DNA of 64,000 nucleotides from Verrucomicrobiota bacterium (GCA_049510745.1 JBEKYR010000009.1:1-64000), one strand, 5' to 3'; positions 14,087 through 22,301 are shown, numbered from the stretch's first letter. Numbers and translations are program-made. Notes: a model not told the origin generated them from the sequence alone.

Positions 14087-14785
14087 ATGCGCGCGAAACT
14101 TATTGCCATTCCCGGCTGTCTGGCCCTTCTGACGGCCGCCATTGCAGTCACCGGACAAACCAACGATTCAGCCCCCAAAATGGGCGGCGACTCCCCCGCT
14201 TTGGCGCTGGTCATCCTTTACGACGGCTCCGGCAGCATGCGGGACAAAGTGCCCAATGTGCGCGGCGAGCCGACGCCAAAATATCAGCTCGCCAATAACG
14301 CCGTCATCACGATCGCCCAGAAGGCGCAGGATTACTGCACGAACAAGCATGTGACCATTGACGCCGGGTTGGTTTATTTCACCGACGCCAAGGTCAAGGT
14401 GGGCATCCCGTTGCAAGCCTTCGATTTAAATGCATTTCAGAACTGGGCCAAGAGCTTCAATTCGCCCGACGGCGGCACTCCGCTGGGGGAAGGAATCAAA
14501 GCCGCCAACCGGATGCTGGCCAAGAGCAGGGCGGTGAAGAAGCACATCCTGATAGTGACCGACGGCGAGAGCAACCAGGGCCAGTCGCCGCAAAATGTGC
14601 TGAAGCAGATGAAAGCGCGGCAGGATTTAACCTCGGTTTACTTTGTCGCCTTCGACGTTTCGGCCCAGGTGTTCAATCCGGTCAAGAACCTCGGGGCCAC
14701 GGTGGTCAGCGCCTCCGATGAATTGCAGCTCAAAACCCAGATCGACGCCCTGCTCGGAAAGAAAATCCTGCTTGAGGCGGAATAA
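14087..14785 (+). CDS. Secreted von Willebrand factor A domain protein
   Basis: AAGGA RBS, signal peptide, intact MIDAS DGSGS...GGTP...VTDG. Confidence 0.92.
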   Translation: MRAKLIAIPGCLALLTAAIAVTGQTNDSAPKMGGDSPALALVILYDGSGSMRDKVPNVRGEPTPKYQLANNAVITIAQKAQDYCTNKHVTIDAGLVYFTDAKVKVGIPLQAFDLNAFQNWAKSFNSPDGGTPLGEGIKAANRMLAKSRAVKKHILIVTDGESNQGQSPQNVLKQMKARQDLTSVYFVAFDVSAQVFNPVKNLGATVVSASDELQLKTQIDALLGKKILLEAE

Positions 14786-14826
14786 TCGTAACAGCATCAA
14801 CCCGGAACCTTCAAAAACAGACCATT

Positions 14827-15588
14827 ATGTGGAAATCAATCAAGCGTCTCCTGATTTACTTGAACCTCATGGCGGAGAAGTCCACCGAGACCGATGCCAT
14901 CAACGAAGCCCAGATCGAAGCGGGAATCCGGGCGCAAAAGGACAAGGCGGGCAAAGCCCACTATGCCAATGGCCAGTTGGCCGGCCAGGTGGCGCTGCTC
15001 AAAGACCAGGTGCGCCGCCAGACGGCGAAGGCGGACGAGGTGCGCGGCCTGCTGCAGGCGGCCGCCAACGCCAACGATGAAGCCAACGGCGCCCAATACG
15101 CCGAGGAACTGGCCTCCGTCGAGCAGGAACTGGGCGAAAATCAAAACCAACTCAAGATATTGCAGGACACTTACGCGCAGAACACGGAGATCATTGCCAA
15201 CAGTTTGCGCGAGATTCAAAAATTCCAGCGCGACTTCGAGAGCCTCAAAACCCAGGTGGCCATGGGCGCCTCCATGCGGGGCCTGGCCCAGATGATGCAG
15301 AGTTCGATCACCGAGTTGCAAAGCATGGGCGGGGAAATGAACAAGTCCATGGACCAGTTGCGGCAATCCGCGGCAGGTGGAATTGGACAAATGACCGCGA
15401 CCATGGACCTGGCCAAAGCCATGGGGTCGGATGTCCAACGCCAGCAGGAAGCGCGCAAAGCGCGCGGAAAACTTCTCTTCGAGCAGTTCAAGGCCAAGTC
15501 CAACCAGGTGAACGCGGAAGCGGCGGCAACGCCGCCGGCCGCGGCCGCCGCGGCCAAAGCGCCGGAACGCCAAAAGATCGCCGAATAA
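14827..15588 (+). CDS. PspA/IM30 (ESCRT-III superfamily)-like protein
   Basis: N-terminal amphipathic helix MWKSIKRLLIYLNLM, long coiled coils, AAANANDEANGAQYA at the hairpin position, C-terminal LLFEQFK helix. Confidence 0.75.
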   Translation: MWKSIKRLLIYLNLMAEKSTETDAINEAQIEAGIRAQKDKAGKAHYANGQLAGQVALLKDQVRRQTAKADEVRGLLQAAANANDEANGAQYAEELASVEQELGENQNQLKILQDTYAQNTEIIANSLREIQKFQRDFESLKTQVAMGASMRGLAQMMQSSITELQSMGGEMNKSMDQLRQSAAGGIGQMTATMDLAKAMGSDVQRQQEARKARGKLLFEQFKAKSNQVNAEAAATPPAAAAAAKAPERQKIAE

Positions 15589-15628
15589 GTCCCAAACCCA
15601 GTCCGAGCAACCCATTGGAAGGAATCCT

Positions 15629-19519: not shown

Positions 19520-19526
19520 AACCTTT

Positions 19527-20501
19527 ATGTTTGACCCGCAAGACAACAACCTGAAGAAGTTCCTCAAAAGCCCGCACCACCTGTGGCTGCTGGCGCTGAC
19601 CCTCGGGGTCGGGTTCATCAGCGCCAACCCGTTCGTCCTGGCGGCCGGCCTGGCGCTTTACGCGGTGGGTTGGATTTATCTGCCGGACATGGGCGTCTTC
19701 CAGCGGTGGGTGGGCCGGCACATGGACCAGATCGCCTCGGCCAAGTCCCAGCAGCAGATTCAAGCCTTCCGAGAACGGCGCCAAACCCTCATGGCAGGAC
19801 TCTCGCCGGCACGCCTGCGCCGTTACCTGGATGTGGCGGGCGTTTGCCAGGATATTGAAAAAGCGACCGTGGAAGGCGGGGCCGGCGCGGCCACGGACGC
19901 CGACCCGCGGCTGCGGAAACTGGACGAGCTGATGTGGACCTTCCTGCGCTTGCTGGTGATGGAGGGATCGCTGGAAAGCTTTTTGGCCACGGAAAGCCAG
20001 GAGCAGCTTCCGGTGGATATCCAGTCCAGCCAGGCGGAGATCGCCGCCATGGAAGCCGACATCAAGACCGCCACCGGCAAAGGCGAGAATCCCGCCGCCA
20101 GGCTCCGGTTGCTCGACTCCAAGAAAGAGCGGCTGGCCGTTCTGAGCAAACGGCAGGAACGCGTCAGTGAGGCCAACGAAAACGCGACCCTGGTGAAGGC
20201 CGAGCAAGACCGGTTGGTGGAACAAATCAAGCTGCTGCGCGCCGATGCCATCGCCGCCCGAAACGCGGACACGCTCACCGCCCGGATCGACGCGACGGTG
20301 GAGCATCTGACGGAGACCAACAAGTTGTTTTCCGAGATGGACCAGTTCAAGGATTTGGTGGCGGACGACCTGCCGCAGACGGGAGAACGGCTCGGTTTTT
20401 CAGCCGGAGCCGCCACCGCCGCTCCGGCGGATCGGACCCCGCCCCCGATCATCAGCCCGCCTCCCAGGGACAACCGCATGAAACAGGGCAACCGCAATTA
20501 G
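19527..20501 (+). CDS. Two-TM plus long coiled-coil protein
   Basis: Two hydrophobic N-terminal helices followed by about 250 aa of helical coiled coil; tightly packed in the operon. Confidence 0.8.
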   Translation: MFDPQDNNLKKFLKSPHHLWLLALTLGVGFISANPFVLAAGLALYAVGWIYLPDMGVFQRWVGRHMDQIASAKSQQQIQAFRERRQTLMAGLSPARLRRYLDVAGVCQDIEKATVEGGAGAATDADPRLRKLDELMWTFLRLLVMEGSLESFLATESQEQLPVDIQSSQAEIAAMEADIKTATGKGENPAARLRLLDSKKERLAVLSKRQERVSEANENATLVKAEQDRLVEQIKLLRADAIAARNADTLTARIDATVEHLTETNKLFSEMDQFKDLVADDLPQTGERLGFSAGAATAAPADRTPPPIISPPPRDNRMKQGNRN

Positions 20502-20522
20502 GCCTTGAGCCAAACACCGAAC

Positions 20523-22301
20523 ATGGACACCAAGCCGCCCCCTCTTCCACTCCAGCCCTGGGCCAGGGAATTCGCGCGCCGCTGGAACAGCGAAGCCTAC
20601 TCGGTCTTCCTGATTTCCGGCAATATCTTCGACATCTACGCCGTCCAGGCCGGGGACGGCATTGATTATCTGCCGCTCAAGGCCTTCCTGCGCAACCGCC
20701 TGTTTCCCGACCGCAGTTGCCTGATGTTTTATGACATCGGCGACGGACTCAGTTTTGCGACCCGGGAAATGCAGAAATGTTTTTTTGAGTGGCTGGAGGA
20801 TTACGACTCGGTGGAGAAAACCGGCTTTGCCGTGGCCGGCCCTCCCAAGGAGTTCAACCGGCTGGCGCCCATTTTGCGACGATTCTTTCTGCGCGAGGAC
20901 AAGAAGGGCACCGACGCCACCCTTATGATTGACTTCCCCGAAAAGATCATCCCGGCGGCGGAAGACGCCGGCAGCAGTTACGAGGAGCGGATGGCCCTGG
21001 TCACCATGCTCAAATGGGCCACCTCCCCCGAATTCCGGCAGCGGGACGTCGGGATCGTGCTCATCACCGAGACGCCGTCCAAACTGCAAAGTGATTTGCT
21101 GCAAAACCCCCACGTGGCGCAGATCAACATCGACCTGCCCGACCGGGACGAACGGATGCGGTATCTGCAGTCCAAGACTTGCGCGCGCCTCATCCAGACC
21201 GCGAGGGCGGGCGCGTCCAAGCCTCCCGCCGGCATCGACCTGACGGCGGAGGAATTGGCCGTCCGCACTTCGGGGCTGAACATCGTCCGGCTGCAAAACG
21301 TGATCGCCGAGGCGGTCAAAAACGGGCAGAATGTGACGCAGGACCACGTGAGTCGGTGCAAGAAAATGTTGATCGAAGAATTCTGCCAGGGGCTGGTCAA
21401 GTTCAAAGATCCGCAGCCCGACATGTCGCTGGACATCGTGGCCACGCACAAGGCGGCCAAGCAAAAACTGCGCGACGTGGCCTGGCTCTTCAAGAACAAC
21501 AAGTTGGATGTGATCGAAAAGGGCATCCTGCTTCCCGGCCGGGTGGGAGTCGGAAAGTCTTTCCTGGTGGACTGCTTCGCCAGCGAATGCGGACTTCCCG
21601 TCATGGAAATGGGAGACTTCCGCTCCAAATGGGTGGGAGACACCGAACGGCAGCAGACCCGCATTTTGATGACCATCAAGGCCCTGGGTCCGGTCATCGT
21701 GGTCGTGGACGAGGCGGACGCGGTGTTTGGCTCGCGGGCCAGCGGGGGGGACGACAGCGGGGTTTCCAGCCGCGTCTTCGCCGCTTTCGCCGCCCACATT
21801 GGCGATTCGAGCACGCGGGGGCGGGAACTCTGGATTGCCATGACCTCCCGGCCCGACCTGTTGACCATCGACCTGAAGCGCCAGGGCCGATTGGGTTTGT
21901 GCATTCCGCTCTTCCCGGCGCAGGGCAGCCAGGATGTCCTGGAGTTGTTTCAAACGGTCACCCGGGGCAAAAAAATGGCGCTGACCGCGGACATCAGCCG
22001 GTTCATTGAACAGAGCATGGGGAGCAAACCCCTGACGGGCAGTGATGTCGATTCCGTCATCACGAGGGCCAGGGAAATCGCCGTGCTCGACAAACGGGAC
22101 CTGGACATTCAAGTCAAAGACATCGAAGAGGCCATCGGGAGTTTTATTGACGCCTTGGACCCCGGCCTGATCCAGTTGCAGGAACTGGCGGCCGTCCTGG
22201 CCTGCTCGGACGCCCGTTACCTGCCGGAAAAATACAAGACCGCCGACCGGACGGCGATGACGCTGGAATTCAACCGGCTGCGCAGCCAGTTAAGCGACTA
22301 G
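20523..22301 (+). CDS. Classical-clade AAA+ ATPase (degenerate N-terminal AAA-like domain plus active C-terminal AAA)
   Basis: Walker A GRVGVGKS, pore loop SKWVGDTE, Walker B VVVDEAD, SRH TSRPDLL..DLKRQGR. Confidence 0.92.
   Translation: MDTKPPPLPLQPWAREFARRWNSEAYSVFLISGNIFDIYAVQAGDGIDYLPLKAFLRNRLFPDRSCLMFYDIGDGLSFATREMQKCFFEWLEDYDSVEKTGFAVAGPPKEFNRLAPILRRFFLREDKKGTDATLMIDFPEKIIPAAEDAGSSYEERMALVTMLKWATSPEFRQRDVGIVLITETPSKLQSDLLQNPHVAQINIDLPDRDERMRYLQSKTCARLIQTARAGASKPPAGIDLTAEELAVRTSGLNIVRLQNVIAEAVKNGQNVTQDHVSRCKKMLIEEFCQGLVKFKDPQPDMSLDIVATHKAAKQKLRDVAWLFKNNKLDVIEKGILLPGRVGVGKSFLVDCFASECGLPVMEMGDFRSKWVGDTERQQTRILMTIKALGPVIVVVDEADAVFGSRASGGDDSGVSSRVFAAFAAHIGDSSTRGRELWIAMTSRPDLLTIDLKRQGRLGLCIPLFPAQGSQDVLELFQTVTRGKKMALTADISRFIEQSMGSKPLTGSDVDSVITRAREIAVLDKRDLDIQVKDIEEAIGSFIDALDPGLIQLQELAAVLACSDARYLPEKYKTADRTAMTLEFNRLRSQLSD

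Follow-up and report, generated by a model that had tools for sequence, protein, structure and literature searches.

Background

The closest described systems join ESCRT-III-superfamily proteins with ATPases or membrane partners in different ways. In eukaryotes and archaea, ESCRT-III with Vps4 or CdvC combines an ESCRT-III-family polymer, whose subunits expose a C-terminal motif, with a classical-clade AAA+ ATPase bearing an aromatic pore loop. In the proteobacterial PspFABC system, a PspA effector is encoded along with membrane partners and an AAA+ protein, PspF, which is a sigma54 activator, and in the actinobacterial ClgR-PspA-PspM(Rv2743c)-PspN system PspA has an N-terminally anchored helical partner. 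Here we analyze seven genes from a Verrucomicrobiota bacterium, located in a 64,000-nt stretch of DNA (JBEKYR010000009.1:1-64000, assembly GCA_049510745.1; henceforth the window, to which all unprefixed nucleotide coordinates refer), that share features with each of these systems. They encode a divergent PspA, a tandem AAA+ ATPase, a membrane-anchored helical protein, an exported vWA protein, a substrate-binding protein (SBP) with an OmpA domain, and the permease and ATPase of an ATP-binding cassette (ABC) transporter (Table 1).

According to a 2025 review (PMC7619361), PspF is a transcription factor, a Vps4-like ATPase appears to be absent in bacteria, and PspA polymers must be regulated otherwise. 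Ravi et al. 2024 (PMC11237479) reported PspA in the company of a two-domain AAA+ ATPase with an inactive N-terminal copy, a transmembrane (TM) 'Snf7' protein, an ABC ATPase, a permease and a PBPB-OmpA protein, likewise drew the analogy to ESCRT-III and Vps4, and proposed ATP-dependent membrane remodelling. Genes 2-7 of the present cluster appear in identical order and architecture in their Table S3 (OGG56892.1), which also includes a context lacking ABC genes (AKJ06548.1) and a pair of ATPase and PspA (AEY64321.1); an earlier note on this DNA had rightly pointed to such PspA/Snf7 neighbourhoods in comparative genomics. The neighbourhood is thus already in print and known in silico, and for that reason does not constitute a new kind of system. 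In the accessible parts of that paper the vWA gene goes unmentioned (0 occurrences in the supplement), and neither the two SBP paralogues, nor genome-wide co-inheritance, nor viral carriage was found; furthermore, the 'Snf7' label of the membrane protein is not confirmed by our analysis. What we add is a test system, a set of modular rules (an optional ABC transporter and two SBP types) and viral copies. No bench test of a PspA/tandem-AAA module was found in the literature searched, which left subscription journals mostly uncovered. The module offers a ready Vps4-like candidate: both proteins are soluble, the bare PspA-ATPase pairs provide minimal versions, and the tail is conserved. Should the ATPase recycle PspA, then ATPase-driven ESCRT-III turnover would have arisen twice.

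PspA and the tandem ATPase form the core of the module

By homology and predicted fold the second gene product is a divergent PspA/Vipp1 (ESCRT-III) protein, as the earlier note had proposed, although the protein itself gives no PF04012 match. Seven of its 28 close homologues match PF04012, below the cut-off, and 16 of the 32 full-length matches of the PspA profile score above it, making the membership a transitive one. The close-homologue profile had 0 matches among PDB sequences, and Vipp1 (6zvr; E 9e-16, residues 1-249) was reached by a widened profile only. In the structural model a long hairpin (helices 2-81 and 85-155) precedes several short helices, an arrangement that corresponds to the alpha1-alpha2/3 hairpin and, after it, the hinged helices alpha4 and alpha5. 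Foldseek searches with this model place Vipp1 at ranks 1-4 (E 0.04-0.08), and E. coli PspA (4whe) superposes on it with a root-mean-square deviation of 1.4 across 116 columns. The N-terminus aligns with that of Vipp1 and has the character of an amphipathic helix, residues 1-18 having a hydrophobic moment of 0.48, the third highest among 27 sequence windows. At the opposite end, R248, Q249, K250 and I251 are at least 90% conserved, and a short basic-hydrophobic C-terminal motif lies beyond a variable linker in 34 of 35 homologues, the motifs having been picked by eye from the same sequences.

Judged by its sequence, the ATPase is a tandem, Cdc48-like enzyme of the classical AAA+ clade. Its C-terminal module has a Walker A motif, a DEAD Walker B motif, an aromatic pore loop and two arginine fingers, all kept in 30 aligned homologues, with S or C rather than N at the sensor-1 position. 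About 295 residues precede this active module; the CDC48-type alignment sets in between residues 50 and 126, so that the N-terminal part is partially covered by the CDC48 model and by CDC48-family records. The presumed N-terminal Walker A position has no GK in any of the 30 homologues, and alignment of the two halves against each other with hhalign was negative, at 0.1%. The CDC48 model TIGR01243 matches residues 126-527 with E 4e-21, as against 1.6e-9 for CdvC; the 60 best of 189 matches to solved structures comprise VAT, AFG2, p97/Cdc48, Rix7 and FtsH, with VAT, AFG2 and p97 in front, and Pfam detects no MIT domain in the protein. The earlier note was therefore right about the clade, and, as seen below, about inheritance together with PspA, and wrong in so far as it implied Vps4 itself: the lack of an MIT domain, the tandem modules and the better CDC48 score rule out a Vps4 or CdvC identity. 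The enzyme is at most a Vps4 analogue, which may nevertheless work like Vps4. Three stand-alone homologues (L131, L132 and L133, from G289, G254 and G305) have, within the small subdomain, a histidine-rich and possibly metal-binding insertion of about 90 residues.

The 64 loci that we found through the ATPase, many of them on short contigs, contain the membrane protein in 55 cases, SBP-OmpA in 44, PspA in 41 and the vWA protein in 19. In the 43 of these with at least 6.5 kb of upstream sequence, the counts are 40 for the membrane protein, 33 for PspA, 32 for SBP-OmpA, 16 for vWA and 12 for the permease. This clustering exceeds chance, which upholds the suggestion that the gene set is conserved as a unit. 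We also searched 201 Planctomycetota genomes (the phylum of G153) with the PspA profile; 45 matched, 29 of them at E < 1e-29. All 29 genomes with such a strong match to this PspA clade encode the ATPase at E < 1e-168, as opposed to none of 30 comparison genomes (20 of the 156 without a PspA match and 10 of the 16 with weak matches), two of which have distant matches near 1e-67. Fourteen of the 29 had fed the ATPase profile and 15 had not. Likewise, all three of the 31 near relatives that carry a PspA of this clade also carry the ATPase.

The arrangement of the genes varies. Five loci are bare pairs, in which the ATPase directly follows PspA and the other module genes are absent, and in four others PspA, SBP, ABC and anchor genes stay together with the ATPase elsewhere. 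Where the ATPase is remote from PspA, 11 of 12 regions have no other module gene nearby, indicating that the PspA-ATPase link survives lost linkage. PspA-centred regions also show the full module and rearranged versions with a shifted vWA gene (L089, L097). PspA and the ATPase are thus the core of the module. Pairwise identities of PspA and ATPase correlate across 15 loci (Spearman 0.74), which we do not count as evidence because identity pairs are not independent. The closest ATPase relatives (93%) are in Verrucomicrobiota records. In one near relative, at that identity, only residues ~165-598 of the ATPase persist, without another module gene in the locus (L001:9828-11293; G375:C2:1158123-1159418); this is a decayed copy. 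In plasmids, the membrane protein and a distant PspA were unmatched, and no annotated PspA lies nearby in two regions of Bacillota plasmids with full-length relatives of the ATPase.

The module differs from PspFABC, whose PspBC and PspF the earlier note had described as absent: no PspF-type family matched gene 7, and neither PspC nor PF04012 has a match elsewhere in the genome, which is 94% complete. In three of three near relatives PspC is not found together with the module, a pattern compatible with chance. In comparison to Vps4 and CdvC systems, the ATPase is a tandem Cdc48-like one without MIT, and there are partners outside the membrane.

The membrane-anchored partner and the outer components

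The product of gene 6 is modelled with helices at 16-32, 35-54, 56-90, 94-116, 127-158, 161-185 and 190-281, followed by a disordered tail. The first two agree with the earlier description of a two-TM protein, whereas hydropathy yields a single segment above 1.6 (residues 21-39). No family scores above its cut-off for this protein. An ESCRT-III nature, as had been suggested for it and for gene 2, fits gene 2 and gained no match here: hhalign against the PspA alignment gave probabilities of 4.3% and 6.7%, no Snf7/PspA Pfam model matches any of 49 family members at E 0.01, and none is among the 25 families listed for sets of 52 and 20 members. Fold searches produced nothing at E <= 0.001; their top rows are BAR domains and other helical bundles, and no Vipp1, Snf7 or CHMP chain is among the matches listed, which does not by itself exclude the fold. 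A search for shorter relatives of the protein gave fragments only. In the ESM Atlas, the nearest named cluster is Rv2743c/PspM (language-model likeness 0.86, with 180 of 256 features; 0.82 for the cytoplasmic part, residues 56-292), and the PspM family PF25587 is annotated on 40% of this cluster. The PF25587 hidden Markov model (HMM) does not match the protein itself and has two weak matches elsewhere in the genome, so that the PspM likeness is a lead that the HMM does not confirm. A further difference from the actinobacterial system is that ClgR is absent here; Ravi et al. (PMC11237479) found no PspM homologues outside Actinobacteria.

Of the parts predicted to lie outside the membrane, the vWA protein has residues of the MIDAS type. 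Its gene travels with the module, being retained at other module positions in the rearranged loci L089 and L097. The SBP-OmpA protein has a hydrophobic segment at residues 4-22, consistent with membrane anchoring or export, and its profile matches Omp38 (3td3, E 7e-13). It occurs as two paralogues with ~27% identity (15629-17386 versus L029:7272-8942). Type A (64-92% identity to the copy in the window) has the permease and ABC ATPase adjacent in 13 of 13 loci, and type B (24-31%) in none of 31; in the type B genomes G024, G099, G081 and G151 no close permease was found, the best match having 24-28% identity as against 68% in G152. The permease and ABC ATPase are therefore optional and tied to one SBP-OmpA paralogue, and type B may be a transporter-free sensor or tether. 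The ABC complex, which the earlier note had made part of the system, is indeed present here as a NitT/TauT-type importer, with SBP, permease and ATPase encoded together and all named substrate models below cut-off, yet is dispensable in many relatives. In a quick PspA tree of 74 rows, which left out three ABC-less Planctomycetota rows and several near-duplicates, 17 Opitutales-type rows without ABC genes fall into one clade (SH-aLRT support 98) and three ABC-less Planctomycetota rows into a separate one; as this is only a quick tree, we draw from it neither a donor nor an order of events.

Copies on viral contigs

Two IMG/VR records (G357, 91 kb, and G358, 186 kb; CheckV 35% and 82%) contain all seven genes in the order of the window. 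These contigs have a GC content of 0.32 and 0.38, and the third-position GC of the module genes matches that of their neighbours (0.17-0.30 versus 0.20-0.25 in one, 0.30-0.43 versus 0.25-0.42 in the other). In L086 the reading frame of the ATPase is broken at Walker A. The neighbouring genes are of the large-phage kind, encoding an anaerobic ribonucleotide reductase, an NAD ligase, an exonuclease, a sigma factor and HNH nucleases. Both records are fragments, and they matched none of six virion models (Gp23, Terminase_6N, Portal_T4, Phage_sheath_1C, phrog_2 and Baseplate_J), two of which matched in no control either, and no ribosomal L16; their viral nature is therefore judged from gene content and from their being listed in IMG/VR.

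On the quick tree, the two viral PspA rows do not form a group. Ten long-branch PspA homologues near them (P0246-P0249, P0255, P0256, P0258, P0259, P0265 and P0269) are possibly viral as well; IMG/VR scans with three divergent ones uncovered no new locus, and the viral PspA was unmatched among GenBank phages. PspA has been recorded from huge phages (bioRxiv 10.64898/2026.10.24.761521), with 189 pspA genes, 15 of them beside a complete ABC system, and thus shares with our contigs a pspA in large phage genomes that in some cases adjoins an ABC system. Unlike our records, the main text of this preprint has no occurrence of 'AAA', though its supplementary tables may list these contigs, and its IMG/VR screen needed PF04012, which is often missing in this PspA clade. 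Several small proteins encoded on the 91-kb contig (L085:9959-12478; L122:226-618, 4760-5116) resemble one another in an N-terminal motif of the K-I-x-S-K-x-Q-W type, mostly without a PHROG match.

Proposed mechanism and alternatives

With gene content, PspA membership, intact catalytic motifs and co-inheritance established, we infer the molecular steps as follows. The locus would be an accessory envelope-maintenance module, in which PspA, going by its family, would attach by its N-terminal amphipathic helix to the cytoplasmic membrane, on the inner face, and polymerise on stressed membrane like Vipp1/PspA. The ATPase would assemble as a ring, and its presumably inactive N-terminal module or its pore would grip the exposed C-terminal part of PspA. 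The active module could then extract PspA subunits, so that the polymer is recycled or reshaped, a function convergent with that of Vps4 and derived from a Cdc48-like ATPase. The membrane-anchored protein would localise the reaction, as PspM or LiaI may do for their PspA; we assume LiaI, Msp1 and XpaC to be functional analogues. SBP-OmpA and the vWA protein, outside the membrane, would tether it to peptidoglycan and either sense a ligand or bind one, and the permease and ABC ATPase would be an optional importer of one SBP paralogue. By analogy, then, we consider the chances evenly balanced that the module's own ATPase recycles a PspA polymer responsive to stress, in the manner of ESCRT-III and Vps4.

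In favour of PspA recycling are the PspA fold and family, the amphipathic N-terminus, the preserved motifs of a protein-threading AAA+ enzyme, the co-inheritance and a weak co-folding signal, along with the same inference made by Ravi et al. (PMC11237479); these bring it to about an even prospect. For co-folding, which the earlier note had recommended, the ATPase (residues 12-598) was combined with PspA residues 150-253 and with three controls, and scored 0.50 against 0.00 for the best control; at least 13% of contacts are shared between runs and the partner has a pLDDT of at least 40. The mark used was reached by 116 of 157 solved pairs and 2 of 215 mismatched ones, counts only roughly valid for the alignments used, and at a score of 0.60 or lower by only 18 of the 157 solved pairs and both mismatches. 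The result slightly raises the odds of ATPase-PspA binding and shows no interface.

Several observations weigh against recycling. The co-folding score falls in a band that is more often wrong than right unless binding is already probable on other grounds. ATP hydrolysis is an activity that PspA and Vipp1 have of their own, and they remodel membranes with no partner ATPase (PMC11746142); such an ATPase is missing from most PspA systems (PMC7619361). Two of the 29 Planctomycetota genomes were first found through the ATPase, kin are not independent, and co-inheritance indicates a common pathway and not that PspA is the substrate. The module is also patchy: of the Verrucomicrobiota that we searched, 5 of 151 have it, and of the near relatives 3 of 31, with 0 of 2 congeners. 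Finally, in the Verrucomicrobiota loci the most constant neighbour of the ATPase is the membrane protein (40 of 43) with PspA at 33 of 43, and in G152, where the module is split, the ATPase remains next to the membrane protein. This adjacency, with genes 3 nt apart and several loci that keep just this pair, also favours a Cdc48/Msp1-like role, in which the ATPase would extract or reset the anchor or a PspA-anchor complex and PspA would be affected indirectly. The anchor too has a disordered tail, and Cdc48/p97/VAT are the nearest solved relatives of the ATPase; nonetheless the five PspA-ATPase pairs without an anchor gene nearby, and the four loci with the anchor beside PspA and the ATPase elsewhere, make this role a rather unlikely one.

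That the membrane protein is itself a second, tethered Snf7-like ESCRT-III subunit, nucleating or co-polymerising with PspA into a heteropolymer that the ATPase turns over, we regard as unlikely, given the low profile-profile probabilities, the absence of Snf7/PspA families from all the member sets above and the Atlas pointing to Rv2743c/PspM instead. An uptake or sensing system, in which the main task falls to the ABC importer and SBP-OmpA while PspA and the ATPase only chaperone its assembly or shield the membrane around it, would fit the conservation of permease, ABC ATPase and type A SBP at 60-92% identity in 13 loci and their presence in both major PspA subclades. It becomes improbable in view of the type B SBPs without permease or ABC genes in 31 of 44 SBP-bearing loci, the four type B genomes without a close permease and the PspA-ATPase pairs that have none of the outside parts. 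An anti-phage or phage-interaction module, acting in membrane-based defence or superinfection exclusion rather than in general envelope repair, would agree with the patchy distribution, the broken copy in a near relative and the two viral contigs; high conservation across phyla, a module GC resembling the rest of the window and flanks consisting of a DUF2157 membrane protein and a large secreted LamG protein render it very improbable. Returning to PspA recycling, a fuller version strikes us as doubtful: a bacterial Vps4 equivalent, in which a Cdc48-like tandem ATPase binds one PspA clade at its short C-terminal motif and dismantles the polymer, with a PspM-like anchor and peptidoglycan-tethered sensors, and in which at least two unrelated large phages have carried all seven genes long enough to match their low GC and use them in managing the host membrane while infecting.

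Gene order, leader and flanking genes

The seven genes are co-oriented and closely spaced, as the earlier note had described, with gaps of 41, 40, 78, 33, 7 and 3 nt in order. Their GC content (0.56-0.62) is near that of the window, and each is single-copy in the 5.6-Mb genome (ABC ATPase rows being excluded from the table of copies).

Table 1. Features of the PspA-ATPase module in the window, and its viral copies
Feature	Coordinates	Strand	Basis and remarks
Exported vWA protein, 232 aa, DGSGSM ... T ... TDG	14087-14785	+	PF00092 E 1e-11; hydrophobic segment 5-23
Divergent PspA/IM30 (ESCRT-III superfamily), 253 aa	14827-15588	+	Low-complexity linker; conserved terminal RQKI motif
SBP (SsuA/TauA-like) with C-terminal OmpA peptidoglycan-binding domain, type A	15629-17386	+	TIGR01728 E 1.5e-10; PF00691 E 3e-8
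ABC permease, NitT/TauT type	17465-18322	+	PF00528 E 7.5e-18; SaoP/TauC models below cut-off
ABC ATPase, TauB/NrtD type, ~100-aa low-complexity N-terminal extension	18356-19519	+	PF00005 E 7e-29
Membrane-anchored all-helical protein, 324 aa	19527-20501	+	Model pLDDT 80.9; named 'SIG+TM+Snf7' by Ravi et al., which our searches did not confirm
Tandem AAA+ ATPase, 598 aa, with an apparently degenerate N-terminal and an active classical-clade module	20505-22301	+	AAA PF00004 E 2e-21
Candidate sigma70-like promoter, TTGACC-16-TACAAT	13889-13916	+	170 nt before vWA start; weak
11-pair hairpin after SBP gene	17417-17441	+	-17.2 kcal/mol
Viral modules	L085:1466-9725; L086:1577-9727		IMG/VR large-phage-like contigs G357, G358

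Of the single sigma70-like promoter claimed earlier, the site is present, but such sites are no more frequent than by chance (3 found versus 2.1 +/- 1.5 expected). L002, the single close relative used for alignment, retains the -10 box and the 170-nt leader but not the -35 box. A leader hairpin (13986-14010, -15.0 kcal/mol), whose arms are mostly kept in L002, is possibly a regulator site, or else an RNA element; Rfam has 0 matches across 13300-22400. The hairpin after the SBP gene is a possible partial terminator or mRNA stabiliser, of a kind frequent by chance (26 found versus 15.6 expected).

Upstream, on the same strand (8928-12068), lie genes for a DUF2157 membrane protein, a further open reading frame and a protein with a GDYLILNY motif, presumably of the GDYXXLXY family. 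Ravi et al. (PMC11237479) relate DUF2157 to LiaI/LiaF. These genes are possibly another envelope-stress unit and are not among the recurrent neighbours of the module. Between them and the module, an open reading frame for 392 aa (12195-13373) encodes a hydrophobic stretch near the N-terminus and matches nothing in Pfam or NCBIfam. Downstream, a secreted 1959-aa LamG / DUF6055 / fibronectin III protein (22306-28185) starts on the same strand 4 nt past the ATPase stop, and is not a recurrent neighbour in the 64 loci.

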